Source: Gammaproteobacteria bacterium (lineage in GTDB: Bacteria; Pseudomonadota; Gammaproteobacteria; Eutrophobiales; Eutrophobiaceae). From it: 55,357 nucleotides of DNA. The notes below the pieces were generated by a model, which was not told the origin of the DNA, searched no databases, and saw nothing but the letters and a program-made list of their open reading frames with translations. The position numbers and the translations under genes were made by a program. The first letter of the stretch is position 1; each line of letters begins with the position of its first letter. The stretch lies in assembly GCA_051275005.1 (NCBI GenBank), contig JBNMOP010000002.1:1-55357 (forward strand), given 5' to 3'. Below, in pieces: positions 20,448-41,045 of this stretch.

Positions 20448-20488
20448 TTTTGGGATTGCATCATCAAAAATATCCTCGGGGGCGGTGG

Positions 20489-22921
20489 ATGGTTGGCTTA
20501 ATCATAAAATCTCGTAAATTTATTTTATTTACTGTCGTTTTCTTAGCCGGAGTTAATGTCTCTCAGGCTCAGCAGTCTCGTTCAAATTCAAATCAAGATT
20601 TAATTAATCGCTATTGTGTAAGTTGTCACAATAAGACATTAAAGACGGCAAATCTGTTATTGGATAAGGCCAAAATTGATGAAATCAGTCAGGCCCCTGC
20701 GTTATGGGAGCGCGTCAATCTCAAGCTAACTCTTAGAGCAATGCCACCTGTTGGGATGCCGTTACGGCCTTCCGAATCAGAATACCAACAACTTATAGGT
20801 CACTTACAGAGCGAACTCGACGGTCTTGCGGATAGAAATTCAAACCCGGGCAGCGTCACTGTTCATCGACTCAATCGGTCTGAATATTCCAATGCGATTA
20901 AGGATTTGCTCGCAATAGATATAGATGCGCAAGCACTTTTGCCCCCGGACAATATCGGACAGGGGTTTGACAATATCGCTGAAGTCCTCGCGGTCTCTCC
21001 TTTATTGATGGAGCAGTATATGTTTGCTGCCAGCAAGATCAGCAAACTTGCTATTGGTCCTGATGAAATGCTACCAGTGAGTGAAAGCTACAGTATCGAT
21101 AATGACTATCGTCAAAACGAAAGAATGAATGAGGACCTGCCGCTGGGGTCGCGTGGTGGAATGGCGTTTAACCATTATTTTCCCATGGATGGAGAATACA
21201 CTGTTAATGTTAAACTCCACCGCAGTCAGGAGGGCTATATTCGTGGTATTCGAAAAGCACACCAGGTGGATTTTCGTCTCGATCATGAGCGTATAAATGT
21301 CATTAAAGTAGGTGGCGAGATACACGGTCGATCCGGACCACTTTTTAATGAGAGTCAGAATCCACAATATGCAGGCGACCCGGTACAAACTGGTTATGAG
21401 TTTACCGCTGATGAAGTCCTAAAGGTGACATTCCCTGCAAAGGCGGGTTCCCATCTGGTTTCGGCGTCGTTCATAAACGAAACAACTAAACCCACAGGTA
21501 TGAAAAAACCTGAAATGACGTTGTTAGATATCGGATCTTATAAAGGGGGCGATGCCACCGTTGCCTCCGTGACCATTACTGGACCACGCAATGCAACGGG
21601 ACCAGGGTTAACAGCAAGTCGCCAGAAAATTTTTATCTGTTCACCCGAATCACAGGATGAACAGGATACCTGTGCACAGGAAATATTATCGACACTCGCA
21701 CGCAGTGCTTATCGACGGCCTGTTACCAATGAAGATATGAATGAACTGATGGCATTGTTTCAAACAGGTCGTATGAGTAATGGCTTCAAGACGGGGGTTG
21801 GTTTGGCCATTCAAGGTATCCTCTCCGGGCCGGAATTTCTATTCAGGGTTGAGCAGGACCCAGGCGGTGTGGTACCGGGTTCTATCTATCCCATCTCAGA
21901 CATGGAGCTGGCATCTCGTTTATCTTTTTTCCTGTGGAGCAGTATTCCTGACGATGAACTCATTTCAGTTGCCGACCAGGGTCGTTTACGTGATCCTAAA
22001 ATATTGAATAATCAGGTTAAACGTATGATGTCTGATCCCAGATCAGAGGATTTTATTAAAAATTTTGGTGAACAATGGTTGGGATTAAGAAATATGGATA
22101 TCTTTAACCCACACCCCGAGGTCTTTCCTGAATTTGATGATGAACTGCGCGAGGCCATGAGAACTGAAACCGAATTATGGTTCAGGGAAATGATTAGAGA
22201 AGATCGAAGTATTGATGAATTGCTAACGGCTGATTTTACCTACTTGAATGAACGCCTTGCTAAACATTACGGAATTTCAGGCGTGAGTGGTAGTCGTTTC
22301 AGGCGGGTATCATTATCTGGTTATGATGAGCGTATCGGCTTGTTAGGGAAGGGTAGTCTGTTGGCGGCAACATCCTATAACAATCGTACCTCACCGGTAT
22401 TAAGAGGAAAATGGGTATTAGAGAATCTCTTGTCTATGCCTCCACCCCCTCCACCGGATGATGCATTTCAGCCGGTGTTAGAGGTTGAAAATGAAAATGG
22501 CACTGCCTTGACTATGAAACAGGCCATGGAAAAACATCGGGCCAACCCGGTATGTGCAACTTGTCATAAATTAATGGATCCCATCGGTTTTGCCCTGGAA
22601 AACTATAATGCCATAGGCTCATATCGAACCAGGTATGAAGAGGCTAATGCGGATGTAGAATCAGCCGGAATTTTATTTGATGGAATGGCATTTAGTAACA
22701 CCAGTCAATTTCGAGACAGGTTATTGGTCCATTCAGACAGAATAGCCCATACCGTGACCGAAAAAATGCTGACCTACGCCCTGGGGCGGGGCATTGAGTA
22801 TTATGACCAACCAGAGATCAGGGATATCGTCCGCAAGATATCCGCAAAAAACACTGCCTGGACTGCATTAATTCAGGGAATAATTGAGAGCACCCCGTTT
22901 CAATATCGGAAGGCTCGATGA
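20489..22921 (+). CDS. Exported di-haem protein of the DUF1587/DUF1592/DUF1595/DUF1588/DUF1585 (planctomycete PSCyt/PSD-type) family, cassette 1
   Basis: ATG 20489 follows GGGGGCGGTGG; TTG 20450 is an alternative start. A signal peptide is present. CxxCH at 20615-20629 (CVSCHN) and at 22553-22567 (CATCHKLMDPIGFALENY). Further motifs HRLNRSEYSNAIKDLL, AYRRPVT and FGEQWLGL. Confidence 0.85.
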   Translation: MVGLIIKSRKFILFTVVFLAGVNVSQAQQSRSNSNQDLINRYCVSCHNKTLKTANLLLDKAKIDEISQAPALWERVNLKLTLRAMPPVGMPLRPSESEYQQLIGHLQSELDGLADRNSNPGSVTVHRLNRSEYSNAIKDLLAIDIDAQALLPPDNIGQGFDNIAEVLAVSPLLMEQYMFAASKISKLAIGPDEMLPVSESYSIDNDYRQNERMNEDLPLGSRGGMAFNHYFPMDGEYTVNVKLHRSQEGYIRGIRKAHQVDFRLDHERINVIKVGGEIHGRSGPLFNESQNPQYAGDPVQTGYEFTADEVLKVTFPAKAGSHLVSASFINETTKPTGMKKPEMTLLDIGSYKGGDATVASVTITGPRNATGPGLTASRQKIFICSPESQDEQDTCAQEILSTLARSAYRRPVTNEDMNELMALFQTGRMSNGFKTGVGLAIQGILSGPEFLFRVEQDPGGVVPGSIYPISDMELASRLSFFLWSSIPDDELISVADQGRLRDPKILNNQVKRMMSDPRSEDFIKNFGEQWLGLRNMDIFNPHPEVFPEFDDELREAMRTETELWFREMIREDRSIDELLTADFTYLNERLAKHYGISGVSGSRFRRVSLSGYDERIGLLGKGSLLAATSYNNRTSPVLRGKWVLENLLSMPPPPPPDDAFQPVLEVENENGTALTMKQAMEKHRANPVCATCHKLMDPIGFALENYNAIGSYRTRYEEANADVESAGILFDGMAFSNTSQFRDRLLVHSDRIAHTVTEKMLTYALGRGIEYYDQPEIRDIVRKISAKNTAWTALIQGIIESTPFQYRKAR

Positions 22922-23005
22922 TTTGGCATTGTTTGTAGTTATACATTGAATTTTAAAGATAAATGTTCAAGAATTAATAGATACGTAATTGGAGGTTAGA
23001 GCGCC

Positions 23006-24355
23006 ATGATGATATTTAAAAAATCCATTCCCCGTCGTACTTTTTTACGTGGTGCAGGTGCAAGCATCGCCTTACCGTTTCTTGATGCCATGGTCCCCGC
23101 TTTTGCGGCGACATCTGCCTGGAAACAGCCATTACGATTGGGATATGTTTATCTGCCCATTGGTCGAATTATGGATAATTGGACACCAAAAACTGAGGGC
23201 GCGAATTATGAAATGACGCCAACACTTGCGCCTTTGGCACCCTATCGAGATCAAATGCTCATTATGAGCGGATTAGATATCAAGGCCGCTGATTTGAGGC
23301 CTGGAGAAAAAGGTGGAACTCATGCTCGCCCATGTGCGGCCTACCTCACAGGTGTTCATCCTTATGATAATTCAGTGGGTATTTCAGCAGATCAGATCAT
23401 CGCAAAAAAAGTCGGGCAGCACACACAACTTGCTTCGTTACAACTGGGTCTGGATCCAGCGGAATGGGCAGGCGGTAGTGAGGTGGACTATGATGGATTT
23501 TACCGTAGCACCTTGAGCTGGTCTTCGGCAACAACCCCATTACCAACTCAGGATAATCCTCGTAAGGTATTTGAAAGATTGTTTGGTGATACCGATACCG
23601 TTAATGCAGTGGCAATGCGTCAGCGTATCGAAGAACAAAGCAGTGTACTGGATTCAGTTAATTCCAGGGCAAAACGCCTGATGAAAAATATTAACTCCGG
23701 TGACCGTTATAAGATCGAGGAATATCTCGATGCAGTACGCGATATAGAACGCGGTATCCAGGTGGCAGAATCGAAGGCAGCAACTGATGACAACATGACC
23801 AGGAATCTCACTCGTCCTTCAGGGATACCAGAGCTTTATGCAGATCATGCAAAACTTATATTTGACTTGATGTTTCTCGCCTACCAAACGGACATGACCA
23901 GGGTCGTCGCCTTCATGATGGGTCATGAAGGCACCAACCGTAATTACCTGGAGCTGGGTGCACAGGATGGAAATCATTCCATGTCACACCATAAAGGAAA
24001 CAAGAATGCGATCGAAGCTCTGAAGAAAATAAATATGCATCAATCAGAATTGCTTGCTTACTTTCTTAATAAGATGAAGACTGCCACAGATGGTGAAACG
24101 TCATTGTTGGATAACTCCATGATTATTGTTGGCAGTGCATTAAGTGATGGCAATTTGCACCTTCATAATGATGTGCCAACATTGGTACTGGGTTCTGCGC
24201 AAGGTAAGGTACAAGGTGGTAGACATGTTCGCTATAATAGTGAGCCATTATCTAATTTGCATATGGCTACCATGGACATGTTTGACGCGCCATCACAGGA
24301 TTTTGTTACCAATGAAACCAGTGATGCCACCGGAATTCTCCCCGGGCTTGTTTAA
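23006..24355 (+). CDS. Tat-exported DUF1552 (HXXSHH) family protein, cassette 1
   Basis: Leader MMIFKKSIPRRTFLRGAGASIALPFLDAMVPAFA. Further motifs FERLFGDTD, YLDAVRDIERGI and AYQTDMTR. HXXSHH signature HSMSHH at 23975-23992. Confidence 0.85.
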   Translation: MMIFKKSIPRRTFLRGAGASIALPFLDAMVPAFAATSAWKQPLRLGYVYLPIGRIMDNWTPKTEGANYEMTPTLAPLAPYRDQMLIMSGLDIKAADLRPGEKGGTHARPCAAYLTGVHPYDNSVGISADQIIAKKVGQHTQLASLQLGLDPAEWAGGSEVDYDGFYRSTLSWSSATTPLPTQDNPRKVFERLFGDTDTVNAVAMRQRIEEQSSVLDSVNSRAKRLMKNINSGDRYKIEEYLDAVRDIERGIQVAESKAATDDNMTRNLTRPSGIPELYADHAKLIFDLMFLAYQTDMTRVVAFMMGHEGTNRNYLELGAQDGNHSMSHHKGNKNAIEALKKINMHQSELLAYFLNKMKTATDGETSLLDNSMIIVGSALSDGNLHLHNDVPTLVLGSAQGKVQGGRHVRYNSEPLSNLHMATMDMFDAPSQDFVTNETSDATGILPGLV

Positions 24356-24382
24356 TTAACAGCTATTCAATAATTAATAGAT

Positions 24383-26029: not shown

Positions 26030-26277
26030 ATCTCTAATCTTGCGTCTTTAACTCTCTGTCTACATTCGTTTCAAATACTTTTTATAATCCAGGTGGTTAG
26101 TCTGTGCTGAATTATTTAAATGGTTAATAATCTGTTACACAGTTGTAATAATCACTTAGTCCCAGCTGACATACACCTTTATGAAAAAATACAGAAGTAT
26201 CGTATTTATTTATAGACCAGATAAAATAAATCAACCCTGAGTCTGAATGAAATTTAGATCCAGGGCTGATCAAATAA

Positions 26278-27150
26278 TTATGTTAAATGTTTTTTGAAGA
26301 AACTGATGGTACGGTTCCAGGCAAGGTCTGCCGCCTCTTTAACATATCTGTCTGGTCGATTGTCCTGGTTGAACGCATGCTTGGTGCCGGGATAAATATA
26401 TAATTCGTATGGCTTGGCATTTTTTTCCATGTTGCTGATGAAGCCAGGTAAACTGGCGACCAGTCTAGGATCATCGGCGGCATAATTTCCTAGTATTGGC
26501 GCGTTAATATTTTCATATCCTGATTCAGGAGGTGCCCCATAGAAGGCCACCGCAGCATCTAGTTTAGGTGTGTCTACCGCGAGACTCAGTGAATGCCCGC
26601 CACCCCAGCAAAAGCCGATAGAGCCGACTTTGCCAGTGGCTTTAGTACTGGATTTGAGAAAACTCACTACTGCAACGAGGTCTTGATCAATATCCTTACT
26701 GTTTATTTTTGCAAGAGAGGCAAGTGCGGCATCTCCTTCTGGACCACGAGATTCACCTAAGGGTGTACCCCCAGCACGTGACAGCATATCCGGTGCAATG
26801 GCAATGAAGCCATCTAATGCAACTTTCCGAGCGATATCCTTGAAATGCGGCCATAGTCCACGATTCGCGTGGATCACAATTACCGCAGGGAGTTTCTCTG
26901 TACCAACGGGCCGGGCCATGTAGGCCATAATATCGCCAGCCGGGCCGGGAATCTTAATAGACGATATAGAAAGTCTGGGATCATTTTCCGGGATCTGATC
27001 TGCATGTGCCAGATTGCCTTCTAATAAAGACACTGCAGACATGGCAGCGGCTGCACTTCCGGTAATGACAGTAAGGCGATGCATAAAATTTCTACGTCCC
27101 ATAGGGGTGTGAAGGTATTCGTCGTAAAGGTCAGCAATTTTTTTGTCCAT
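26278..27150 (-). CDS. Tat-exported dienelactone hydrolase family protein
   Basis: SD AGGAG 7 nt upstream. N-terminus DLYDEYLHTPMGRRNFMHRL... carries a twin-arginine. The nucleophile motif GSIGFCWGG (G-x-C-x-G) and the size of 290 aa are typical of DLH/carboxymethylenebutenolidase-like enzymes. Confidence 0.85.
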   Translation of the reverse strand: MDKKIADLYDEYLHTPMGRRNFMHRLTVITGSAAAAMSAVSLLEGNLAHADQIPENDPRLSISSIKIPGPAGDIMAYMARPVGTEKLPAVIVIHANRGLWPHFKDIARKVALDGFIAIAPDMLSRAGGTPLGESRGPEGDAALASLAKINSKDIDQDLVAVVSFLKSSTKATGKVGSIGFCWGGGHSLSLAVDTPKLDAAVAFYGAPPESGYENINAPILGNYAADDPRLVASLPGFISNMEKNAKPYELYIYPGTKHAFNQDNRPDRYVKEAADLAWNRTISFFKKHLT

Positions 27151-27221: not shown

Positions 27222-28610
27222 TCACATCGTGCTTGTCATTTTTACGAATTCCGGTTTGGTTTCGATCAAAATTTCTTTAATTGCTGTTCGATCTTTTTCA
27301 TTGAGATGGGAAAATGAATCACTGCTGTCAGCGCCTGAAAGAATTGCATCGAATCTCTGATAAACATAATTTCTGGTCATTTCTGGCAATGCATCAAAGG
27401 CTTTCGAGTATATCAGATAGCTTAAAGGATAACGGAACAGCCTGGAGTTCAGGTCCAGGTTGCGCAGGCTACGATTCTTGCTATCGTAAGGACCACGTGC
27501 TTCAAATTTTTCTCTGAAGCCTGAGTTGCCATTTATTGGCGCATTAATTTCGGCCTCATTTACCATCAACATCGCCAACACTAATGGTTCTATAATATTG
27601 TTGATATTGGTTTGATCTATATCTGGCATGTCTGAACTAGATACGCCATTTTTAATTGCATTTTCATAGAATGATTTTCGCACATCATAATTAACACGTG
27701 TAATCAGGTTCTGTATCTGTAACTGGTGTTCCATTACCATCAATGCATCGATGTCACTAAAGGTGGTTAGGTAATTTTCTGGATTTATAAATCCGGCTAT
27801 ATTGTCCAGATTTCCCATACGAAGTGATTCCAGGTCTTGCAGGTCTTCAGGTTTTTTTACTACGATATTTCCAAGGTGGACTTGATCGCCATGTTTGCCT
27901 GTTACATACCATCCTCCCCATCGAAATCTTAGCGGGGTTTCTTGTTTAGTTAATATCCAGCCTTCGTGAGAGACCAGGCTACCGGTAAAGTTTGTATAAC
28001 CCGATCCAATAATAAAGCGAGGTACACCGCCACCGCTAAGTGTTAAGGAATCATGACAACGCAAACATAGTCCTGAATCCCGAACAAAACCTACGTTATT
28101 GTTTTGATTTTGAGTCAGAAGATAAAATACCGGACCAAGGTTGGGATCTAAAGAAGCTATTTCAATAGATTCAGTTTCCGGTACCCATGCGATATAGGTT
28201 TCATCATTAAAATAGATAGCACGAGGGTTATTGGCACGGATTGCGCCGACATTCAAACTGGTATCTGAATAGACGAGGACTTGAGACTCTGAATCGATAT
28301 TAAGTGTATGGAGCAAGTCACTAAGATAACCATGTGGTGCCTTATATGACAAAGACTGACTACCGTTACTGATCGCTTGCTGTAGCTTTGCTACAGGATC
28401 TTCAGGCATTCGTGTCGAGTAACCTATCACCGGATATTCACGGTCATAGAGTAATTGCCCTTCCTGAGGTATTAATTGTGCTACAAGAGAGTTATCAATT
28501 TCTAACAGTGACTGGGCAAAAACTTTATTGATTATAACTTGAGATAAAGTGGATATCAGCAAGAGATATATAAATAAATAATTTTGAAATTTTATTACAG
28601 GGAAGGCCAT
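27222..28610 (-). CDS. Exported protein of unknown function with a single CxxCH haem-binding motif
   Basis: Signal peptide ...NKVFA|QS. The single motif is GLCLRCHDSL, about 190 aa into the protein. I recognise no family. It lies between the cytochrome c gene and the DLH gene on the same strand. Confidence 0.6.
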   Translation of the reverse strand: MAFPVIKFQNYLFIYLLLISTLSQVIINKVFAQSLLEIDNSLVAQLIPQEGQLLYDREYPVIGYSTRMPEDPVAKLQQAISNGSQSLSYKAPHGYLSDLLHTLNIDSESQVLVYSDTSLNVGAIRANNPRAIYFNDETYIAWVPETESIEIASLDPNLGPVFYLLTQNQNNNVGFVRDSGLCLRCHDSLTLSGGGVPRFIIGSGYTNFTGSLVSHEGWILTKQETPLRFRWGGWYVTGKHGDQVHLGNIVVKKPEDLQDLESLRMGNLDNIAGFINPENYLTTFSDIDALMVMEHQLQIQNLITRVNYDVRKSFYENAIKNGVSSSDMPDIDQTNINNIIEPLVLAMLMVNEAEINAPINGNSGFREKFEARGPYDSKNRSLRNLDLNSRLFRYPLSYLIYSKAFDALPEMTRNYVYQRFDAILSGADSSDSFSHLNEKDRTAIKEILIETKPEFVKMTSTM

Positions 28611-28693: not shown

Positions 28694-29011
28694 TTACTGT
28701 GCGGATAAATATACTGCCAAGTTTGCAATATCATCATCTGATAATGAACCTGCCATTGCCTGCATAGTGGCATTTTGACGCTCACCACTTTTGAAAGCAT
28801 TTAACTGTTCAATAATGTAGGCCTCTTCTAGGCCTGCTAATTTTGGAAACATGTCAGGCATAGCGCTGTTACCTGATGCACCATGGCATCCCATACATCC
28901 CATGCCAGAATAAGTAGATTCACCAGCTGCAGCATCAGCTGCCTGGGCACTTGAGAAACCGAACATCAGAACTAATGATACAAGTGCTGATAAATAGCCT
29001 ATTTTTTTCAT
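28694..29011 (-). CDS. Class I mono-haem cytochrome c (c5/c-55x-like), exported
   Basis: SD GAGGA 7 nt upstream. Signal peptide ...FSSAQA|AD. CxxCH (CMGCHG). Distal Met context NATMQAMAGSL. Size 105 aa. Confidence 0.8.
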   Translation of the reverse strand: MKKIGYLSALVSLVLMFGFSSAQAADAAAGESTYSGMGCMGCHGASGNSAMPDMFPKLAGLEEAYIIEQLNAFKSGERQNATMQAMAGSLSDDDIANLAVYLSAQ

Positions 29012-31077: not shown

Positions 31078-32409
31078 TTAGCCTGTCAGGCCTTTCAGTA
31101 TGCCCGTGGCATCACTCTTCTCAGTCAGATATTCTTCAGAAGAGACGTTGGCCATATCCATTACTGCCAGGTGAAGATTGGATACTGGTTCACTGTCATA
31201 ACGGAGATGACGACCTCCCTTGACGTTCTTTTGTGCGCCACCAAACACCAGTGTCGGTACATCAGTGTGTAGATGAAGATTACTGTCACTGTGTGCACCG
31301 CCAGCAATTATGATGCTGTTATCGAGTAGTGATCCTTCACCATCGTTAGTTGCTTTCATCTTGCTAATGAATTTTGAGAGTAAAACAGATTGATGAAACT
31401 CAATCTTCTTGACCAGATCAATTGCCTCTTGTCGTCCTTTGTGGTGGGTCAATGAATGGTGTCCGTCTTTGGCCCCAAGTTCGAGGTAGTTTCGGTCACT
31501 ACCTTCATGACCTAGCATTAAGGAGATCATACGGGTCATATCTGTTTGATAAGCCAGTAACATCATATCAAACATAAGGCTGGCATGATCTTCAAAGAGG
31601 ATGGGTATACCGGCGGGACGCATAATATCGGTATCAACCATGCCTTCATTCATGGATTTGGCTTCCGTTACTTCAATGCCTCGTTCGATGTCTCTGACTG
31701 CATCAAAATATTCCTGTAGTTTATGTTGATCACCAGAACCCACACTAGTCATTAGACGCTTTACCCCGTCACTGACGGAATCCAGAACACTGCTCTTTGA
31801 TTCCATGCGACGACGTAATGCCTCTGGGTCCAGAGTATCGGTATCACCAAAAAGTCGCTCAAAAACATTACGCGGATTTACCTGTCGCGGAAGGGGCGTG
31901 CTTTCAGTGCGCCATGAAATGGTGCTGGTGTAATACCCGGAAAGACCATCTACCGCGCCACCTGCCCATTCAGGTGGGTCTATACCCAACTCCATGGATG
32001 CCAATGTGGTCTCTTGACCAAGCTGTTTGGCAATGATCTGATCCACAGATATGCCTACGGTATTGAATTCCTTGGATGGGGTAATTCCTGTCATATACGA
32101 CGCACAGGGTCCCGAGTGAGAACCATTGCCGGCAGTGACATCTAATCCACTTAAGACAAGCATCTCTTCACGATGTTTTGCCAACGGGGTAAGGGTTGGT
32201 GTCAATTCGTAATCACTGCCCGTTGCAGTGGGGATCCAATGATCCATAATTCTTCCAGTAGGTAGATATACATATCCAATCCTGAATGGACGTTGACCAG
32301 CAGTGGCTGCCAGAGCAGGTACCATGGCGTCAAGAAATGGCAATGCGATTGCTGCACTGGCACCCTTAATAAATGAACGACGTTGAATCGCTTTTTTGAA
32401 AATCATCAT
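31078..32409 (-). CDS. Tat-exported DUF1552 (HXXSHH) family protein, cassette 2
   Basis: Leader MMIFKKAIQRRSFIKGASAAIALPFLDAMVPALA. HXXSHH variant HSLTHH. AYQTDMTR is present. The start codon overlaps the upstream stop (ATGA at 32406-32409). Confidence 0.85.
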   Translation of the reverse strand: MMIFKKAIQRRSFIKGASAAIALPFLDAMVPALAATAGQRPFRIGYVYLPTGRIMDHWIPTATGSDYELTPTLTPLAKHREEMLVLSGLDVTAGNGSHSGPCASYMTGITPSKEFNTVGISVDQIIAKQLGQETTLASMELGIDPPEWAGGAVDGLSGYYTSTISWRTESTPLPRQVNPRNVFERLFGDTDTLDPEALRRRMESKSSVLDSVSDGVKRLMTSVGSGDQHKLQEYFDAVRDIERGIEVTEAKSMNEGMVDTDIMRPAGIPILFEDHASLMFDMMLLAYQTDMTRMISLMLGHEGSDRNYLELGAKDGHHSLTHHKGRQEAIDLVKKIEFHQSVLLSKFISKMKATNDGEGSLLDNSIIIAGGAHSDSNLHLHTDVPTLVFGGAQKNVKGGRHLRYDSEPVSNLHLAVMDMANVSSEEYLTEKSDATGILKGLTG

Positions 32410-34880
32410 GGTTGACTTCTCCTGTATTGAAATGGCGTGCTTTCAATTACACCCAGTATCAAAGATGACCAGGTGTAATTATCAGATTCGGATTTGCTTA
32501 TGATATCCCGAATTACGGGTTGATCATAATATTCTAGTTTTCTGCCCAGGGCATATGTCATTACCTTGCCTACCACTGTATGCACAAATCTGTCTGAATG
32601 GTTCAGCAGTTTTTCCCTGAATCCAGCTGTATCTTTAAATTCGCTATTATCAAACAGGATGCCTGATGGGTCGACCTCGGCATCCGCCTCTTCGTAACGG
32701 GTCCTGAATGATCCTATGCCATCAAAATTCTCTAGCGCCAGGCCGATTGGTTCCATCATCTTGTGACAATTTGCACATACCGGGTTTTGCCTATGGGCCT
32801 CCATGGATTCTTTCATGGTAAGCGCTTTGCCCGCCTGACTTTCTACCTGTAGTTCGGGTTGAAAGGCATCGGCAGGGGCTGGCGGTGGTGCCATGTCCAT
32901 CATGTTTTCCAGCACCCATTTTCCTCTCACTACAGGGGAGGTACGACTATTGAAAGAAGTAACCATAAGCAGACCAGCCTTGCCGAGTAAGCCTGCTCTA
33001 TCAGGTGAATTGACAGAGACTTGGCGGAATTTGTCACCATAGATACCAGGTATTCCATAGTGTTCAGCGAGGCGTTCGTTTACAAAGGTGTAATCGGCAG
33101 AGAGCATGTCCAGCACACTTTTGTCTTCGCGCACCATGTATTCAAACCAGGTTGCCAGCTCTTTCTTCATGGCTACACGCAATGAGCCGTCAAAGGATGG
33201 ATATAAGGCCTTTTGAGGTGCGGCCAGGTCTATCATGCGCAAGGCTAACCACTGTTCTCCAAAGTTTTTTATGAAAATGTCCGCTTTAGGATCGGCGAGC
33301 ATGCGGTTAACCTGGTCTTCGAGTACGCCGGGTTTTCGTAATTGGCCGTTCTCGGCGAGGCTTTGTAATTCCACGTCGGGAATACTACTCCAGATAAAAA
33401 ATGAAAGACGAGAGGCGAGGTCCAGGTCGCTGATTGGGAAAGCGGTGTCAGATTTTGCATTGGCGGGGTCACGTTCTATTCGAAACAGGAACTCAGGTCC
33501 CGCAAGAATTCGTTGTAATGCCAAATCGATTCCACCTTCAAACCCACCTTGACTTTGCCCTTTATCAAATAGATTCATGAGAGGCTCTATGTCCATTTGG
33601 TCCACTGGCCGACGGTATGCACGATGGGCAAGATTAGAAAGTATTGTGCGTGCGCATTCTTTCTCATCCCTCGCCGAATTAGGTACGCAGGTAAAGATTT
33701 TTTCTCGGCTCGGTGTCATGCCTGGATTTGTTTCACCAAATGGTCCGGTAATCACAACACTATCCAGCATTGCTTCCCCACCCTTAAAGTTGGCGAAGTC
33801 CTTGATCATGAGTTCAGGTGTCAGATAACCCACTGCCTTCGCCCTGTCATCCATGAAGGCAACGCCAACCAGATGGCTTCCCGCACTAACGGCAAACGTT
33901 GTTTCCATATCTTTATCAGCAGAAAACTCATAGCCAATTTGATCCGTATCACCTGCAAAATCGGGATTTTGACTATGGGTAAACAAGGGGCCGGTTTTAC
34001 CATAAAACTCACCACCAACCTTAAAGACTTCCAGGCGATCGTGATCAAGACGAACATCGACTCTATGTTCCCTACGCATGCCTCGAATAAACCCTTCACC
34101 ATTTCTGGCTAGCTTAATGCGAAGGTTATATTCTCCGTCCATAGGGAAATAATGATTAACTGCAATACCCCCTCGTGATCCAAAAGGCAGGTCTTCACTC
34201 ATGCGTTCTTTTTGCAGGAATTCTTCTGATACAGTATAGGTCTCACTAGCAGGAAGCATAGAAGATGGTCCTATGGCAAGCCGACTGATCTTGCTTGCTG
34301 CCAGAACATATTGCTCCATCAACAGTGGAGATACCGCGAGTACCTCGGCGATATTATCGAATCCCTCAGCTACATTATCTGGGGGTAAGAACTCAGCGCT
34401 ATCAATTTCAAGATCTAGCAGGTCACGAACGGCATTGGAATATTCTGTACGGTTTAGTCGATGTATTGATGGTCGTCCTGGGTTTAAATTATTTTTTGCC
34501 AGAGTATCTAACTCTGATTTTAGGTAAGAAAGCATTTGCTCGTATTCAGTCTCAGATGGACGAAGAGGGAATCCGACTTGTGGCATTGCCCTGAGAGATA
34601 ATTTGATAACTACCTTTTCCCATAGCTGTGGCGTCTCGCTAAGATCATCCACGTTAGCCTTATCCAACATAAGGTTAGCTGTGTTTAAGCTTTCATTATG
34701 GCAGGCTATACAATAGCGATTTAAAAAATTCCGGTATTTTGAATGTTCGGAAGGGGCATCAATGGTTGCGGATTGGCTAAATACAAAACCACCGCTTGTG
34801 AATAAAAAAAGAAAGCAAACACTGGTAATTATTTTAATTGCAGATGCATATGAATCTATTTGAAATATATGTTGAGTCAT
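32406..34880 (-). CDS. Exported di-haem DUF1592-type protein, cassette 2
   Basis: ATG 34880; the listed GTG 34892 is an alternative start. A signal peptide is present. CIACHN near the N-terminus and CANCHKMMEPIGLALENF near the C-terminus. Further motifs HRLNRTEYSNAVRDLL, AYRRPV and FGEQWLAL. Confidence 0.85.
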   Translation of the reverse strand: MTQHIFQIDSYASAIKIITSVCFLFLFTSGGFVFSQSATIDAPSEHSKYRNFLNRYCIACHNESLNTANLMLDKANVDDLSETPQLWEKVVIKLSLRAMPQVGFPLRPSETEYEQMLSYLKSELDTLAKNNLNPGRPSIHRLNRTEYSNAVRDLLDLEIDSAEFLPPDNVAEGFDNIAEVLAVSPLLMEQYVLAASKISRLAIGPSSMLPASETYTVSEEFLQKERMSEDLPFGSRGGIAVNHYFPMDGEYNLRIKLARNGEGFIRGMRREHRVDVRLDHDRLEVFKVGGEFYGKTGPLFTHSQNPDFAGDTDQIGYEFSADKDMETTFAVSAGSHLVGVAFMDDRAKAVGYLTPELMIKDFANFKGGEAMLDSVVITGPFGETNPGMTPSREKIFTCVPNSARDEKECARTILSNLAHRAYRRPVDQMDIEPLMNLFDKGQSQGGFEGGIDLALQRILAGPEFLFRIERDPANAKSDTAFPISDLDLASRLSFFIWSSIPDVELQSLAENGQLRKPGVLEDQVNRMLADPKADIFIKNFGEQWLALRMIDLAAPQKALYPSFDGSLRVAMKKELATWFEYMVREDKSVLDMLSADYTFVNERLAEHYGIPGIYGDKFRQVSVNSPDRAGLLGKAGLLMVTSFNSRTSPVVRGKWVLENMMDMAPPPAPADAFQPELQVESQAGKALTMKESMEAHRQNPVCANCHKMMEPIGLALENFDGIGSFRTRYEEADAEVDPSGILFDNSEFKDTAGFREKLLNHSDRFVHTVVGKVMTYALGRKLEYYDQPVIRDIISKSESDNYTWSSLILGVIESTPFQYRRSQP

Positions 34881-34892
34881 ATTGATAAACAC

Positions 34893-35539
34893 GTCCTTTT
34901 AACTGATGGTTTGATATTGTTTGGGTATCATAAGAACCGACATGTTCCAGCCAATTCATTACTAAATTAACAAGAATGCTTTAAGAATGCTTTCTTGCCC
35001 CCACAAATGCATAATTATATACAGTTTTTTAGCACTATTTTACCCCAATCGCAAGGTGGTTTTCTGGCTATTTAAGATATGTATGATTAATACGTAGTAG
35101 AGCGTAAATCAGCGAGAAATATGCACAATTGATCCGCATTTGAGAAAGGTCTATCAATATGGAAATTGGCAGGAAAATGGATACTTCTAATTTTGGGAAT
35201 AATTGTCTTTTTTATCGCTAAATCCTAACAACTGTCTTTAGGGGTTCTGGAAAGTATTTTTTAGTTAGGAGTGATTCCAAATCATGGCTGATACATGCAG
35301 TTCCCGTTATTTATAAAAATAACCACGATAATATAAATAAAATCAATATGTTAGAGTGTTATCTGCCGTTTCAGAAAAATGCAGAATGAGCCAAAAGTTT
35401 GCTATTTACATACCCTACGGGACAGGTATATTGTACTTAAGTTAACGGAAACAAAATTCAGGTATTAGGTTCTAAGATATATATGTTAGAAAAATGTTTT
35501 TCCTATTAACTTAATTTATGCTTACCTAGAACAACAATA
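34893..35539. promoter_or_regulatory. AT-rich divergent intergenic region between cassettes 2 and 3 (presumed divergent promoters)
   Basis: A 647-nt non-coding spacer separates two divergently oriented paralogous operons. No convincing ORF lies inside it. Individual promoter elements were not resolved. Confidence 0.4.
34972..34993. repeat. Perfect tandem duplication of an 11-mer (AAGAATGCTTT x2)
   Basis: Read directly: AAGAATGCTTT at 34972-34982 and again at 34983-34993, ~80-100 nt upstream of the cassette 2 start. Confidence 0.9.
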
Positions 35540-37996
35540 GTGGGGGGTGATTTGTTTAAAATATTCAATGATTTCTGGGACTTAAAGGATAGCGTGACAA
35601 GCTTTGGTTTGATTATACTTTTGTCTACCGCAGGATTAATGACCGTCCAGGCGCAACCATCCGATACAGATCATTATCGCAATATGCTGATCAAGTATTG
35701 TGTGGCCTGTCATAACGAGACATTAAAGACAGCCAACCTGATGCTCGACCGGGCAAATATAAATAATATTAGTGAAGACCCTGCGTTATGGGAAAAGGTG
35801 GTAACCAAGCTCACTCTTCGGGCTATGCCCCAGGTAGGATTTCCACTACGTCCATCTGAAGATGAATACAAAGACATGCTCGCTTATCTGACCGGGGAAT
35901 TGGACAGAATAGCAGAAGAAGATATAAATCCAGGACGGCCTACTGTCCATCGACTTAACCGTACAGAGTATACCAATGCGATACGTGACCTGCTGGATCT
36001 GGAAATAGATGGGGCCAAGCTGTTGCCTCCTGATAACGTGGATGTAGGATTTGATAACATTGCAGATGCCTTGTCGGTCTCACCATTATTGATGGAACAA
36101 TATATGTTCGCCGCAAACAGGGTGACTCAGCTTGCGGTTGGACCCGATTCCATGCGGCCCGCCAGTGAAACTTATGATGTCGCGGAAGAATTTATGCAGG
36201 AAAGCCAAACTACCGATGACCTGCCGTTTGGTTCCCGTGGTGGTACAGTTTTTCAGCATTATTTTCCATTAGATGGCGAATACACCATCCGTGGGAGATT
36301 GACCCGAAATGAAGAGGGCTATATTCGAGGCTTACGTGAACAGAGCTACATGGATTTTCGGTTGGACCACAAACGTATAGACGTACTAACCATTGGTGGG
36401 GAAGTGCATGGTCGCTCGGGTCCGTTATTTACCAATAATGCCATAGTCGATTATGCAGGGGACCCTGACCAGATCGGTTATGAATTCTCTGCAGATAAGG
36501 ATCTGGAGGTGCGGGTCAACGTTAAAGCTGGTAGTCACACCGTTGGAGTGACATTCCTCGATGACTTTGCCAAGAAGTCGGGTGTTAAATCGCCCAAATT
36601 AACCTTGACAGATATTACAAACTATAAGGGCGGAAAACCTGCCATCCTCAATGTCACTGTGACCGGTCCTTTTAATGCAAAGGAATCACCAGACACACCC
36701 AGTCGAAAGAAAATATTTGCCTGTCAGCCAACAAATACCGCTGATGAAGTATGTCCTCAAACCATTCTTTCGCGGCTTGCACACCTGGCCTATCGTCGTC
36801 CAGTAACGGAACTGGAGATAGACAGCCTGCTTAGGCTGTATCGTACAGGCAGAGACCAGGACGGATTTGAATCAGGCATAGAACTGGCCTTACAAAGTAT
36901 CCTCACAGGACCTGAGTTCCTGTTCCGTGTGGAGCAAGACCCACCTGGGGCATCATCAGGTGATGCGCAACCTGTTGCAGATATTGACCTGGCTTCCAGG
37001 CTATCTTTTTTCCTCTGGAGCAGTATCCCTGATGAGGAATTACTCAATGTGGCAGAGAGTGGGCAACTGCGTCAGCCTACTGTCCTGAAACAGCAGGTGC
37101 AAAGAATGATAGCGGATCCCCGTTTTGATGCATTGTTAGATAACTTTGGCTCCCAGTGGTTGGCTATACGTAATCTGGATATTGTCGAGCCACAGACAGC
37201 AATTTTTGTAACCTTTGATGGTGAACTGCGGTCTGCCATGAAGCGTGAGTTGGCCCTGTGGTTTGAAAGCATGGTTAGGCAAGATAGTAATATTGTGGAC
37301 ATGCTTACATCTGATTATACCTATGTGAATGGACGACTAGCGGAACACTACGGTATACCTGAAATTTATGGTGACAATTTTCGTCGTGTAACGTTAGATA
37401 ATCCAATGCGTAGAGGCATTCTAGGAAAGGCAGGATTTCTCACCATTACCTCTTTTAGCAATAGGACATCACCCGTGGTTCGAGGCAATTGGGTGCTGGC
37501 AAATATGTTGAATATGGAGACACCACCAGCACCAGCGGATGCCTTTGAACCAGAATTACAGGTAGAGAATAAAGAAGGAAAGGCCCTGACGATGAAGGAA
37601 TCAATGATTGCACATAGACAAAATCCAGTATGTGCTAACTGTCATAAGATGATGGAGCCTATTGGTCTTGCACTGGAGAATTTTGATGCAATTGGTGCCT
37701 ACCGGGAAAGATATATCGAAGCTGATGCCGTAGTTGATACATCAGGGACGCTATTTGACAATCAAGATTTTAAAGATACCTTGGAGTTTCAGGATAGTTT
37801 GCTACGTCATTCAGACCGGTTTGTTGAAACCGTCACCAGCAAATTATTAACCTATGCATTAGGAAGGGGTCTGGAGTACTATGATCAACCTGAAATCAGA
37901 AAAATTGTGAAAAAAGCCGCAGAGGATAACTATACCTGGTCATCTGTATTACTGGGTATTATTGAGAGTACACCATTCCAATATAGGAGACTATAA
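35540..37996 (+). CDS. Exported di-haem DUF1592-type protein, cassette 3
   Basis: GTG 35540, or TTG 35552 after GGGGGG; the start is uncertain. A signal peptide is present. CVACHN and CANCHKMMEPIGLALENF. Further motifs HRLNRTEYTNAIRDLL, AYRRPVT and FGSQWLAI. It is closest to cassette 2. Confidence 0.85.
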   Translation: MGGDLFKIFNDFWDLKDSVTSFGLIILLSTAGLMTVQAQPSDTDHYRNMLIKYCVACHNETLKTANLMLDRANINNISEDPALWEKVVTKLTLRAMPQVGFPLRPSEDEYKDMLAYLTGELDRIAEEDINPGRPTVHRLNRTEYTNAIRDLLDLEIDGAKLLPPDNVDVGFDNIADALSVSPLLMEQYMFAANRVTQLAVGPDSMRPASETYDVAEEFMQESQTTDDLPFGSRGGTVFQHYFPLDGEYTIRGRLTRNEEGYIRGLREQSYMDFRLDHKRIDVLTIGGEVHGRSGPLFTNNAIVDYAGDPDQIGYEFSADKDLEVRVNVKAGSHTVGVTFLDDFAKKSGVKSPKLTLTDITNYKGGKPAILNVTVTGPFNAKESPDTPSRKKIFACQPTNTADEVCPQTILSRLAHLAYRRPVTELEIDSLLRLYRTGRDQDGFESGIELALQSILTGPEFLFRVEQDPPGASSGDAQPVADIDLASRLSFFLWSSIPDEELLNVAESGQLRQPTVLKQQVQRMIADPRFDALLDNFGSQWLAIRNLDIVEPQTAIFVTFDGELRSAMKRELALWFESMVRQDSNIVDMLTSDYTYVNGRLAEHYGIPEIYGDNFRRVTLDNPMRRGILGKAGFLTITSFSNRTSPVVRGNWVLANMLNMETPPAPADAFEPELQVENKEGKALTMKESMIAHRQNPVCANCHKMMEPIGLALENFDAIGAYRERYIEADAVVDTSGTLFDNQDFKDTLEFQDSLLRHSDRFVETVTSKLLTYALGRGLEYYDQPEIRKIVKKAAEDNYTWSSVLLGIIESTPFQYRRL

Positions 37997-37998
37997 CC

Positions 37999-39336
37999 AT
38001 GATGATATTCAAGAAGGCCATACCACGCCGTAGTTTTTTACGCGGTGCCGGTGCAACACTCGCCTTACCATTCCTGGATGCCATGGTCCCGGCATTTGCA
38101 GCAGAGATGGGAAAACAACCTCTTCGTATTGGTTATATTTATCTCAATACTGGTAGAGAAATGAATTCCTGGATACCCAAGACCACAGGCAGTAATTATG
38201 AAATGTCTCCGACATTGGCACCCCTGGCAAAGTACCGGGATGATTTCATGGTGTTAAGTGGCCTGGACGTCAAGGCAGGACAGGGTTCACATTCTGGCCC
38301 CTGTGCGTCCTATATGACGGGTGTCAAACCATCAAAAGCAGGTGACGGTGTCGGTATCTCCGTGGATCAGGTCATTGCCAAGCAGATTGGCGAGGAGACA
38401 CAACTATCCTCTATGGAACTCGGCGTGGACCCACCAGAATGGGCATTCAATCGGGTAGACGGTCTGGCTGGTTATTACACCAGTACCATTTCATGGCGTA
38501 ATCCTAATACACCCTTGCCGACACAGATCAATCCGCGCAAGGTTTTCGAGCGACTGTTCGGTGATACCGACTCGCTGGATCCCGTTGCCATGCAGCAACG
38601 TCTGCAACGGAAGACCAGTGTGCTGGACGAAGTGAGTGAGAGAGTAAAGCGACTAATGACCTCAGTAAATGCCACTGACCGGTATAAGCTGGAAGAGTAT
38701 CTTGATTCGGTTAGGGAGATTGAACGCGGTATTGAAGTCGCTGAGCGCAAGACAGCCGATTCTGCTGATGATCTGGCAAGCATGGGTCTGGAACGTCCAG
38801 TGGGCATACCTTCGGTCTATGCAGACCATGTGAAGATCATGTTTGATATGATCGTGCTGGCGTATCAAACCGACATGACACGGATGATTACTTTTATGAT
38901 GGGTCACGAGGGCAGTAATAGAAACTACCTTGAGCTAGGCGCTAAGGATGGTCATCATTCATTGACACATCACAAAGGCAACCCCGCGTCCATCAATCTG
39001 GTGAAGAAGATCGATCTGCATCAATCCGAGATGCTTGCCTATTTCATGGAGAAAATGATTTCGATCAAGGAAGGCGATTCAACGTTGCTGGATAATTCAG
39101 TCATAGTGACCGGCGGTGCCCATAGTGATGCCAATATGCACTTGCATACCAATGTACCGATGATGGTCATGGGTAAGGCGCAGAATATGCTCAATACAGG
39201 ACGCCATATTCAGTTTAACGGCGAAGCGGTTTCTGACTTGCACCTGGCAGTGATGAAGATGGGTAACATTGACCCTGCAGAATATTTATCTGACAGGAGT
39301 GATGCGTCCGGAATTCTACCTGGCATCATGGCGTAG
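37999..39336 (+). CDS. Tat-exported DUF1552 (HXXSHH) family protein, cassette 3
   Basis: It starts 2 nt after the upstream stop. Leader MMIFKKAIPRRSFLRGAGATLALPFLDAMVPAFA. HSLTHH and AYQTDMTR are present. Confidence 0.85.
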   Translation: MMIFKKAIPRRSFLRGAGATLALPFLDAMVPAFAAEMGKQPLRIGYIYLNTGREMNSWIPKTTGSNYEMSPTLAPLAKYRDDFMVLSGLDVKAGQGSHSGPCASYMTGVKPSKAGDGVGISVDQVIAKQIGEETQLSSMELGVDPPEWAFNRVDGLAGYYTSTISWRNPNTPLPTQINPRKVFERLFGDTDSLDPVAMQQRLQRKTSVLDEVSERVKRLMTSVNATDRYKLEEYLDSVREIERGIEVAERKTADSADDLASMGLERPVGIPSVYADHVKIMFDMIVLAYQTDMTRMITFMMGHEGSNRNYLELGAKDGHHSLTHHKGNPASINLVKKIDLHQSEMLAYFMEKMISIKEGDSTLLDNSVIVTGGAHSDANMHLHTNVPMMVMGKAQNMLNTGRHIQFNGEAVSDLHLAVMKMGNIDPAEYLSDRSDASGILPGIMA

Positions 39337-39374
39337 TTGGTTTAAACTTCTGGTTAAAGTTTACTGGAGAGCAT

Positions 39375-41045
39375 ATGAGGTACAAACATTCAGCCATTAT
39401 TTGTTTCGGGATAATTGCCTCGGTGGTGTATACCGGGCATGCCTACGCATTTGGACATGATACCAATGAAGAATTATTGGAGGCTGTGCGTGATGGTGAT
39501 ATAGCCAAAGCAAAATCACTATTGGATAACAAGGCTGATGTAAATGCATCTCGTAATGATGGCACAACGGCATTGGCATGGTCTGTCTATAACAATAATG
39601 AAGACATGGTGGATTTATTAATCCGATCTGGCCGTGATGGCGCCGATGTCAATGCCGCCAATGAAAATGGTGTGTCGCCTTTGCACCTTGCCTGTATTAA
39701 CCAGAATGCCTCGGTCGTGTCCAAGCTGCTAAGGGCGGGTGCCGATCCCAACGTTAAAAAATGGACTGGTGAAACCCCGCTGATGACGTGTTCCAATACT
39801 GGAACCATAGAGGGGCTGTCGGGCCTATTGGCGAATGGTGCTGATGTCAATGTCAGAGAAAATACGAATAATCAAACGGCATTGATGTGGGCGGCAGCGG
39901 AAGGGCATGGCGACGTTGTAAAAGCCCTAATTGCGCGGGGTGCTGATTTGAATGCACGATCCAGTACAGTGATGGAACCTGAACCCTACGTGGTTAATAC
40001 CGAAAGCACCATGGGACAAAATTTTCCCAAGTCTACCCGCTTTAGAAAATATACCGGTAATTTCACTGCATTATTATTTGCCGCACAGTCTGGTGATGTT
40101 GAATCTGCAATGCATATTCTCGATGCCGGCGCAGACATTAATGATGCCTCGGATGAAGACGGTAGTGCATTGTTGATAGCTACGGCATCAGGCCATGAAG
40201 ACATGGCATTATTCTTACTTGAACAGGGGGCGGATCCCAATATAGTCAACGCCTGGGGTTTAGCACCGCTGCACTATACTGTTCACAAGGGTATCCTCAA
40301 CATGAGTAACTGGTTGTCTACCAAGACAGATGAGTTAGGTTGGATTCATGAACCTATGCACAGGTTGATGAAGGCCTTGCTTTCTAAAGGTGGCAGTCCC
40401 GATGCCCCGGTATTGTATACACTGCCCTATCTGGACGATCCTTTTCTCCGTGTGCATGACAATCAATCACAGATAGATATTGTAGGATCAACGCCTTTGT
40501 TACTCGCCGCTGCATCCGGTGATACCGAATCCCTACGGATTATGGTGAAGGCAGGCGCAGACATCAATGCAAAGACCATGGGGGGTGGCACATTATTTAT
40601 GCTCGCCGCCGGTGGTGGTGCAGAACGTCGTGGCCGGGATGAGCAACAGGCCATTGAAGCAGCCAAGTATGTTCTCTCCCTTGGGGGCATCGATATCAAC
40701 GCACAATTGACAGATAACCGCACAGTCAATGGCCCTGGTAAAGGCAAGGCCGACGGTCGGTCTATAATGCATTTTATTACCACCTTGGGCTGGAAAGATA
40801 TGGTAAATTTTCTGGCAGAAAAGGGTGCAGATTTAAACGCGCAAGATCGTTATGGTATGACACCGCTGATGATTGCCATGGGAGATCCTGAATCACGATA
40901 CTATCGAAATGTGGGTGTAGGCAGATACGATGACCGTTATAGACGGACCCTTTCGAAATCCCATGGTGATATAGAAAAAATGTTACTTGCCCTGGGTGCC
41001 AATCCATTTACTGGGACGATCGTCAGTAAGGGCTCTGTAGATTAG
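39375..41045 (+). CDS. Secreted ankyrin-repeat protein, cassette 3
   Basis: SD GGAGAG upstream. A Sec signal is present. The 556-aa product has multiple ankyrin repeats and the shared C-terminal block DRYGMTPLMIAMGDPESRYYRN. Confidence 0.85.
   Translation: MRYKHSAIICFGIIASVVYTGHAYAFGHDTNEELLEAVRDGDIAKAKSLLDNKADVNASRNDGTTALAWSVYNNNEDMVDLLIRSGRDGADVNAANENGVSPLHLACINQNASVVSKLLRAGADPNVKKWTGETPLMTCSNTGTIEGLSGLLANGADVNVRENTNNQTALMWAAAEGHGDVVKALIARGADLNARSSTVMEPEPYVVNTESTMGQNFPKSTRFRKYTGNFTALLFAAQSGDVESAMHILDAGADINDASDEDGSALLIATASGHEDMALFLLEQGADPNIVNAWGLAPLHYTVHKGILNMSNWLSTKTDELGWIHEPMHRLMKALLSKGGSPDAPVLYTLPYLDDPFLRVHDNQSQIDIVGSTPLLLAAASGDTESLRIMVKAGADINAKTMGGGTLFMLAAGGGAERRGRDEQQAIEAAKYVLSLGGIDINAQLTDNRTVNGPGKGKADGRSIMHFITTLGWKDMVNFLAEKGADLNAQDRYGMTPLMIAMGDPESRYYRNVGVGRYDDRYRRTLSKSHGDIEKMLLALGANPFTGTIVSKGSVD

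Follow-up and report, generated by a model that had tools for sequence, protein, structure and literature searches.

The window considered here, a stretch of 55,357 nucleotides (nt) of gammaproteobacterial DNA (contig JBNMOP010000002.1), contains three copies of a three-gene cassette. Each copy encodes a DUF1592-type protein with two haem motifs (DUF, domain of unknown function), a DUF1552 protein and an exported ankyrin-repeat protein, which are abbreviated below as A, B and C and numbered by cassette. We find that the DUF1592/DUF1552 pair has a conserved third partner in the ankyrin gene and that the trio is a real, widespread envelope system, linked across several bacterial phyla. The A-B pair is already known and uncharacterised; the ankyrin third partner is new here. 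A dedicated partner of this kind had been put forward in the original prediction, which was made from the letters of the window, and it is borne out by a neighbourhood survey in both directions, by the co-divergence of the three families and by the four gene orders in which they occur.

Linkage and co-divergence of the three genes

In the forward test a profile of B was scanned against one genome per species, which yielded 80 loci with 94 full-length B genes (81 to 44% identity). The open reading frames (ORFs) of these loci were then searched with hidden Markov models (HMMs) derived from alignments of the three families. An ankyrin-family gene is present within 6 kb for 85 of the 91 evaluable B genes. 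Most B genes (61 of 94) belong to an A-B-C series on one strand, 20 have a C-family gene within 6 kb in another position and four show the order B-C with A past the end of the retrieved stretch; the gene is absent in six cases, and three B genes could not be evaluated due to contig ends. The ankyrin-bearing loci come from Gammaproteobacteria (including Woeseiaceae), Acidobacteriota (Terriglobia, Vicinamibacterales and Solibacteraceae) and Alphaproteobacteria (Micropepsaceae and Xanthobacteraceae), and the six ankyrin-free loci include that of Bryobacteraceae (L061) and the evaluable one of Hydrogenedentota (L064).

The reverse test started from a profile of C, scanned against metagenome contigs, and gave 80 loci down to 34% identity, many of them from soil. 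A and/or B is present at 69 of the 70 evaluable C loci (one has neither; ten more have too little flanking sequence). Gene orders differ among these loci: approximately 46 read A-B-C and about 19 read C-A-B, whereas three are divergent and one is convergent. Linkage that is retained through such rearrangement is a classic mark of functional coupling. Three C orthologues, found on long contigs by exact-sequence look-up, all directly follow an A-B pair.

The three families also diverge in step. Pairwise-identity matrices of 53 complete cassettes correlate at 0.85 for A and B, 0.80 for B and C and 0.86 for A and C. When 45 paralogue pairs within one genome are compared the correlations are similar (0.82, 0.77 and 0.89, respectively), and because these comparisons are made within a genome, species phylogeny cannot drive the signal. 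Consequently, every cassette retains its own C.

The linkage has a boundary. An ankyrin gene is absent at the pairs with a B of at most 31% identity that were found in Chondrinema (Bacteroidota), Planctomyces sp. SH-PL62 and Sphingobium herbicidovorans, whereas a Novosphingobium pair at 40% identity does have one; the trio is present in a cultured strain, Novosphingobium sp. KACC 22771, on plasmid NZ_CP117882.1 at about 943-949 kb. The trio thus marks a large subclade and not the whole DUF1592/DUF1552 family. The description 'obligate' for the three-component system therefore holds within the subclade, but not for the distant pairs at 27 to 31% identity, which have no ankyrin gene.

Genomes can carry at least five or six diverged cassettes, for instance the metagenome-assembled genome (MAG) CAMDWI01 and OZ240237.1; multiple diverged copies per genome are the pattern of substrate-specific families. 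A number of MAG records with cassettes (L013, L016, L020, L029, L045 and L082; CAMDWI01 and CAMBTO01) are titled 'Klebsiella pneumoniae'. These labels look wrong, as the gene content matches an uncultured group of Gammaproteobacteria.

Layout and duplication of the cassettes

The ORF list and translations reproduce the three cassettes with the positions, order and close spacing originally described. Cassette 1 is encoded on the forward strand and comprises A1 (20489..22921, 810 amino acids (aa)), B1 (23006..24355, 449 aa) and C1 (24383..26029, 548 aa). Cassette 2 is on the reverse strand, with A2 (34880..32406, 824 aa; 57% identical to A1), B2 (32409..31078, 443 aa; 60% identical to B1) and C2 (31038..29368, 556 aa; 53% identical to C1). 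Cassette 3 returns to the forward strand with A3 (35540..37996, 818 aa; 63% identical to A2), B3 (37999..39336, 445 aa; 64% identical to B2) and C3 (39375..41045, 556 aa; 59% identical to C2). The longest ORF of A1 begins with a TTG at 20450; public gene calls (P0241) take the ATG start of the 810-aa product. The stop of A2 and the start of B2 overlap as ATGA at 32406-32409, and the gap between A and B is 2 nt in cassette 3 (37996/37999) and 84 nt in cassette 1. Gaps between B and C measure 27 to 39 nt in all three cassettes.

Paralogues share 56 to 63% identity for A, 58 to 64% for B and 53 to 59% for C, with a BLASTP E value of 0 for every pair, so chance does not account for the triplication on these alignments. 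Cassettes 2 and 3 form the closest pair for A, B and C alike, as expected from whole-cassette duplication, which agrees with the duplication originally proposed. At these identities the paralogues are old. The related genome CALSRS010000001.1 has orthologues of B1 (about 80% identical) and C1 (66 to 68%) and repeats the three-cassette layout, from which it follows that the triplication is older than the separation of these lineages. Among named relatives, a MAG of Candidatus Eutrophobius (Gammaproteobacteria) is closest.

Between A2 and A3 lies a divergent, AT-rich intergenic region of 659 nt (34881..35539), which presumably holds the promoters of both cassettes. Promoter-like hexamers occur at 35405-35432 on the forward and at 34954-34927 on the reverse strand; these are consensus matches only. 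Promoter-like sites are rarer in the window than in shuffled sequence and terminator-like sites are scattered within genes, which makes both uninformative on co-transcription. An Rfam scan of the entire window gave no match.

Features of the three proteins

All nine cassette proteins match the families originally named for them above the curated Pfam cut-offs. For protein A this concerns the complete five-domain architecture: DUF1587, DUF1595, DUF1592, DUF1588 and DUF1585 (PF07626, PF07637, PF07631, PF07627 and PF07624) are found in A1, A2 and A3 with E values of 1e-18 to 1e-49. In A1 the scores are 83, 66, 166, 115 and 76 bits against cut-offs of 23 to 34, and A2 and A3 behave likewise. The domain order in A1 is an N-terminal cytochrome c-like domain (CVSCH), DUF1587, a jelly-roll insert, DUF1595, DUF1592, DUF1588 and DUF1585. 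The motifs described for this gene can be read directly in the translations: an N-terminal CxxCH (CVSCH, CIACH and CVACH in the three copies), HRLNR-EY, AYRRPV, FG-QWL and a C-terminal CxxCH-x3-(D/E)PIG-ALEN, which in A1 takes the form CATCH-x3-DPIG within the DUF1588 domain. The leaders of A and C are both of the Sec type and end in AxA-like sites.

Both CxxCH motifs are retained in 52 of the 53 cassettes. The C-terminal one, as CxxCH-x3-(D/E)PxG, is present in all 53 and in the distant members L087-L090, and it persists where the adjacent DUF1552 partner is only 27 to 31% identical. Invariant residues are C689, C692 and H693 in the second CxxCH and C43, C46, H47 and M85 in the N-terminal domain. 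The latter scores below threshold against Cytochrome_CBB3 (19.7 to 23 versus 27 bits) and gives weak profile matches to cytochrome c5 and ScyA (E 0.07 to 0.9); taken together, the approximately 90 N-terminal residues seem to behave like a class-I cytochrome c. The two CxxCH motifs lie about 645 residues apart, in separate domains. The structural model of A1 has a predicted local distance difference test score (pLDDT) of 83 and shows no global match to the PDB in a fold search, although its central beta-sandwich (residues ~197-371) weakly resembles the jelly rolls of carbohydrate-binding modules CBM35 and CBM6 or of C1q. PDB sequence searches with A1, B1, profiles of A and B and a 462-aa neighbouring protein described below returned nothing significant, and none of A, B and the 462-aa protein is covered by an NCBIfam model.

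Protein B matches DUF1552/HXXSHH (PF07586) over nearly the full profile (positions 1-301 to 1-307 of 307) at 282 to 306 bits against a cut-off of 30, with E values of 1e-84 to 1e-91 (4e-89 for B1). The HXXSHH signature assigned to this gene is present as such in B1 (HSMSHH), but B2 and B3 read HSLTHH. Over the 53 cassettes the motif is Hxx(S/T)HH, with S and T both common, and the S/T position also varies in an alignment of 64 sequences at 32 to 66% identity. The invariant residues of that same alignment are H106, D129, D216, D233, H324, H328 and H385; H329 is nearly invariant.

As originally noted, B has a twin-arginine leader: B1, B2 and B3 begin with PRRTFLRG, QRRSFIKG and PRRSFLRG, followed by …ALPFLDAMVPAFAA with a hydrophobic stretch and an AxA site, and the RR motif is found in 52 of the 53 cassettes. 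The Pfam TAT_signal match stays below threshold (14.9 versus 22.7 bits). The hydrophobic segment of this leader (23006-23110 in B1, 32409-32305 on the reverse strand in B2 and 37999-38103 in B3, and in loci L007-L090) is conserved far beyond the needs of a cleavable signal: the motif G-x-G-x-x-L-A-L-P-x-L-(D/E)-x-M-x-P-A is still recognisable at 27 to 31% identity, and P24 is invariant across 64 diverse sequences. Judging from this conservation, the segment may be a docking site for a chaperone or an N-terminal segment that is not cleaved.

B was modelled with AlphaFold2 from a 47-sequence alignment (pLDDT 73). The top 50 PDB matches of a Foldseek search with this model all belong to the alkaline phosphatase superfamily, 12 of them at an E value of at most 1e-3. 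They comprise sulfamidase, sulfatases, phosphonate monoester hydrolases, alkaline phosphatase and cofactor-independent phosphoglycerate mutases; E values are approximately 1e-4 and probabilities reach 1.00, but template modelling (TM) scores are only 0.3 to 0.43. B is thus predicted to have an alkaline-phosphatase/sulfatase-superfamily fold. The profile of 64 B sequences aligns to the C-terminal core of the Escherichia coli sulfatase AslA (hhalign E 0.009), where the AslA segment reads LDNTLIVFTSDNG…GG.RVP…DL.PT.L.LAG. Direct reading further shows that H106-ARPCAAYLTG of B1 is spaced identically to the nucleophile segment S136-SPTRATILTG of AslA, which places the invariant H106 of B at the formylglycine position. 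At this position B has H-A-R-P-C (consensus G-x-H-A-R) and no C/S-x-P-x-R motif. After strand 1, AslA reads FLLDDVGW whereas B reads YVYLPIGRIM with no conserved acidic pair, a comparison made on sequence and not by structural superposition. The Pfam Sulfatase model does not match B even at E values up to 10, and with the nucleophile motif missing we rejected the possibility that B is a sulfatase itself. B instead looks like a metal-binding derivative of the sulfatase scaffold. Its Tat export fits this description, as Tat exports proteins that are already folded and cofactor-loaded. The DUF1552 proteins in public data form about 15,500 clusters at 50% identity. A search for fusions of B to A or C in its 120 nearest homologues and 150 top representatives at 50% identity found none, as each of these proteins has a single domain and an ordinary length.

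Protein C proves to be an ankyrin-repeat protein with a Sec signal, as had been read from the translation (…SSFAINA-QS in C1). C1, C2 and C3 score far above the Pfam cut-offs for Ank, Ank_2, Ank_3, Ank_4 and Ank_5 (E ~1e-55 to 1e-63). More than 7,000 homologues of C1 are found at an E value of at most 1e-20, and among the 120 listed most are full-length (~550 aa); C has an orthologous family of its own. Across 131 members conservation is confined to ankyrin-consensus positions, which is in keeping with a scaffold that varies its binding surface along with its partners. A C-terminal GDPE…RYRRP shared by close relatives of C was considered as a family motif and rejected, as it is not retained across these 131 members.

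Neighbouring genes

A run of three exported genes, which the original prediction had omitted, separates cassette 1 from cassette 2 and shares the strand of the latter; it is conserved in related genomes. Directly downstream of C2 lies a gene for a 105-aa exported mono-haem cytochrome c (28694..29011, reverse strand; CMGCH; Pfam Cytochrom_C), which takes the same position in L002, L004 and L007-L009. The next ORF (27222..28610, reverse strand) encodes the exported 462-aa protein with a single CLRCH; in the same loci it is conserved downstream of a cassette, flanked by a small cytochrome c and a Tat-type dienelactone hydrolase. This protein has no match in Pfam (even at E values up to 10), NCBIfam, PADLOC or PDB sequences; a partial homologue occurs at the Terriglobia locus L058. 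The third gene (26278..27150, reverse strand) encodes a 290-aa dienelactone-hydrolase/YghX-like protein with the RR leader GRRNFMHRL (Pfam DLH E 3e-49; NCBIfam YghX below cut-off), and a dienelactone hydrolase also comes after the single cassette of L006.

Directly upstream of A1 is an exported beta-propeller resembling dehydrogenases dependent on pyrroloquinoline quinone (PQQ) (18552..20336, forward strand; Pfam PQQ E 9e-58). TonB-dependent receptors are encoded upstream of cassette 1 (13921..16698, forward strand; Pfam Plug and TonB barrel) and after cassette 3 (41418-44204), and seven amidohydrolases also surround the cassettes. When the neighbouring ORFs of the 80 genome loci are clustered all against all, PQQ-type propellers recur at 12 loci, TonB receptors at 9 and 7 and amidohydrolases at 6. 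None of these recurrent families exceeds 12 of about 80 loci, and the clustering gives no constant fourth gene. The functional unit may extend beyond A-B-C to a hydrolase, a cytochrome c, a PQQ-type propeller and a TonB receptor, but its constant part is A-B-C alone.

Taken as a whole, the window is an exported-protein island with TonB receptors, amidohydrolases, PQQ-type propellers and cytochromes. Every ORF product of at least 105 aa starts with a Sec or Tat signal, with the sole exception of the first gene, which is cut by the end of the window, and no regulator or cytoplasmic enzyme is seen among its ORFs. The propeller at 18552-20336 and a second one at 44336-46216 score 242 to 248 bits against TIGR04528 ('acido-empty-quinoprotein group A'), below its cut-off, and about equally against the methanol/ethanol PQQ family, so their binding of PQQ is putative. 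Twin-arginine leaders (SRRSFLAGMAAAS and NRRNFLKGVGVAAAS) are also present on two thiamine pyrophosphate (TPP, or thiamine diphosphate, ThDP) enzymes of about 635 aa (9317-11215 and 11309-13225). The second of these is followed by a small exported cytochrome c (13210-13632, CFQCH), a pairing that recurs in the related contigs L001 and L004; a coupling of ThDP enzymes in the periplasm to cytochrome c would be unusual. Four tandem paralogous amidohydrolases (484, 473, 481 and 452 aa) occupy 2115-8084, each with a signal peptide followed by (S/A)HRxLLFN. Just upstream of them, a 252-aa ORF (1397-2155) resembles only the N-terminal third of a 696-aa amidohydrolase (49094-51184) and, on that similarity, may be a gene remnant.

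One of the ankyrin-free pairs has different neighbours. In Sphingobium herbicidovorans (plasmid pMSHV, 5370-9516; L090) the pair consists of a distant, shorter DUF1592 protein (annotated at 536 aa) and a DUF1552 protein. Genes for a cytochrome c and a cytochrome b come after it in place of an ankyrin gene, and a TonB receptor and an AraC regulator lie upstream. This may be an alternative membrane wiring of the A-B pair.

A possible enzyme-cytochrome complex and its alternatives

We tentatively favour, as a reading that falls just short of probable, a periplasmic enzyme-cytochrome complex with a dedicated ankyrin scaffold, one per cassette. B would be the catalytic subunit and would acquire its fold and its metal in the cytoplasm before export through Tat; it would keep the alkaline-phosphatase/sulfatase scaffold with the invariant His/Asp cluster in place of the usual nucleophile. 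A would be exported by Sec and have haem c attached at its two conserved CxxCH sites. Its jelly-roll and helical domains would hold B and/or the substrate, while its N-terminal class-I cytochrome c domain would link the complex to the soluble cytochrome c pool. C, a Sec-exported solenoid of roughly 12 ankyrin repeats, would serve the A and B of its own cassette as a scaffold or assembly factor that is specific to the paralogue. The complex would operate in loci that import substrates via TonB receptors and would pass electrons to c-type cytochromes. The occurrence of diverged copies beside TonB receptors, PQQ-type propellers, amidohydrolases and small cytochromes suggests that these are substrate-specific periplasmic processing units for imported organic compounds. 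The analysis itself shows the genes with their domains, the export signals as read from the sequence, the fold class of B and the joint linkage and divergence of the three genes; we infer the physical complex, its haem and metal content, the electron flow (existence as well as direction) and the substrate.

A redox role of the trio would rest on the haem motifs and the neighbouring cytochromes, not on B. As electron-transfer context we count the flanking small cytochromes c, the Sphingobium pair with its cytochrome c and b genes and the export signals found throughout the window. In a comparison of Pseudomonas, DUF1587, DUF1588, DUF1592 and DUF1595 are listed for facultatively anaerobic and not for obligately aerobic members (PMC7789669), which is a weak hint at a respiratory link. 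The redox chemistry originally suggested is putative, as the predicted fold of B is of the metallo-hydrolase type rather than a classic redox-cofactor fold.

Several points weigh against the enzyme-cytochrome complex. Shared operon inheritance would equally produce linkage and co-divergence. The model of B is moderate (pLDDT 73, TM ~0.4) and the sequence similarity to sulfatases is marginal. Enzymes of the alkaline phosphatase superfamily are hydrolases and transferases, not redox enzymes, so a redox role of B would be without precedent. The second CxxCH of A sits in a domain that has no solved relative. Distant A-B pairs work without an ankyrin protein, which means that C is not essential to the core chemistry, and since the neighbouring genes vary widely they indicate no substrate.

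Two other readings are unlikely. In the first the trio would be a new class of periplasmic oxidoreductase: B, with its alkaline-phosphatase fold, would have exchanged its nucleophile for a His-rich metal centre and turned to redox catalysis, A, a di-haem protein so far without a structure, would wire it to the respiratory chain and C would be an obligate third subunit. If true, no earlier case would exist of an ankyrin-repeat protein as core subunit of an envelope enzyme in bacteria, and there would be dozens of substrate-specific versions per genome in soil Acidobacteriota and sediment Gammaproteobacteria. The second is purely hydrolytic nutrient scavenging: B would be a periplasmic phosphate, sulfate or phosphonate esterase with substrates arriving via TonB receptors, A a substrate-binding or regulatory partner whose haem serves redox sensing or structure, and C a chaperone. 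The predicted fold of B, the resemblance of the jelly roll in A to carbohydrate-binding modules, the reported DUF1592-family proteins with such modules (PMC6004670; PMC5615132) and the TonB receptors and hydrolases close by all agree with this. B, however, has a His where the C/S-x-P-x-R nucleophile motif should be and lacks the N-terminal Asp-Asp metal ligands. Moreover, two strict haem motifs and a full cytochrome c domain would be costly for a non-redox partner, and cytochromes c and b are linked to A-B pairs.

It is quite improbable that A and B are a maturation pair, in which a MauG-like A would oxidatively modify a residue of B into a protein-derived cofactor while C holds both. In its favour are the strict 1:1 pairing and co-divergence of A and B, the two haem motifs in A and the unusual invariant segment with His and Cys at the nucleophile position of B. 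Searches of Pfam, PDB sequences and folds detected no similarity of A to MauG or di-haem peroxidases, however; the CxxCH motifs of A are some 645 residues apart in different domains, Tat export implies that B is folded before it meets A, and Cys110 of B is not invariant.

A role in envelope oxidative stress, with A as a haem peroxidase-like enzyme, C as an accessory protein like AnkB and B as a repair or accessory hydrolase, is very unlikely. To our knowledge, AnkB is the only characterised periplasmic ankyrin accessory of bacteria. It serves a haem catalase, according to PMC12754779, and a DUF1552 gene appears in a stress-response table of Rhodopirellula baltica (PMC2754498). The same searches of Pfam, PDB sequences and folds gave no catalase or peroxidase similarity, though, five or six diverged copies per genome next to TonB receptors and catabolic enzymes fit substrate diversity rather than detoxification, and C is three times the size of AnkB-type proteins.

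The idea that C is a passenger, inherited beside A and B without working with them, is essentially excluded: block duplication could have yielded three copies of any A-B neighbour within the window, but the linkage extends to 85 of 91 and 69 of 70 independent loci from Gammaproteobacteria, Alphaproteobacteria, Acidobacteriota and soil and sediment metagenomes, it outlasts four rearranged gene orders, and C diverges in step with A and B. Anti-phage defence was dropped as a candidate, since PADLOC gives no match for A, B or the 462-aa protein and only generic ankyrin models match C.

Relation to known systems and significance

The first description of the PSCyt3/PSD and DUF1552 domains came from Rhodopirellula baltica (Studholme et al. 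2004, as cited in PMC5615132), and adjacency of the corresponding genes has been noted in MAGs of Verrucomicrobia (PMC5615132). A and B are full members of the same Pfam families and keep the A-then-B order. The subclade described here differs in having a dedicated exported ankyrin protein, and its A also has an N-terminal class-I cytochrome c domain and a jelly-roll insert. Our literature search found no paper that assigns a function to the trio or the pair, as had been stated for the pair, or that mentions an ankyrin partner.

A comparable module of the Planctomycetes-Verrucomicrobia-Chlamydiae (PVC) superphylum combines DUF1501 with PSCyt1/PSCyt2/PSD1; an electron-transport role was proposed and the function left unknown (PMC3542564). 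Like the cassettes it joins a Tat-signal protein to a large multi-domain protein with CxxCH and is amplified many times per genome. In contrast, Pfam finds no DUF1501, DUF1549 or DUF1553 in the nine cassette proteins, and the description of that module includes no ankyrin partner.

The predicted fold of B is that of type I sulfatases and the wider alkaline phosphatase superfamily (AslA, sulfamidase 4miv and phosphonate monoester hydrolase 2w8s). With AslA it shares an equally spaced helix motif, x-x-x-x-x-A-x-x-L-T-G, and the aligned segment of the C-terminal core. Identity is about 10%, however, and B differs in being Tat-exported and paired with a haem protein.

For C the nearest comparison would be a functional analogy. 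AnkB is a periplasmic ankyrin-like protein required for optimal activity of the catalase KatB in Pseudomonas aeruginosa (Howell et al. 2000, PMC94626, as cited in PMC12754779), and in both cases an envelope-targeted ankyrin protein would be encoded beside a haem enzyme and serve it as an accessory factor. In contrast to the AnkB/KatB system, there is no catalase in the window or the related loci, and C is much larger (548 to 556 aa), belongs to an orthologous family of its own and has two partners instead of one.

Summarizing, the DUF1552/DUF1592-type pairing has been in databases since 2004 with no function assigned, and a co-diverging ankyrin partner turns this twenty-year-old pair into a testable three-subunit hypothesis. 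The cultured carrier Novosphingobium sp. KACC 22771 offers an experimental entry point, and the sulfatase-like scaffold of B with a His at the nucleophile position a structural lead. The carriers (Acidobacteriota, Woeseiaceae and relatives) are abundant degraders of organic matter in soils and marine sediments. Discussion of ankyrin proteins in bacteria usually centres on secreted effectors, a picture that would change with a housekeeping role in the envelope at such a scale.

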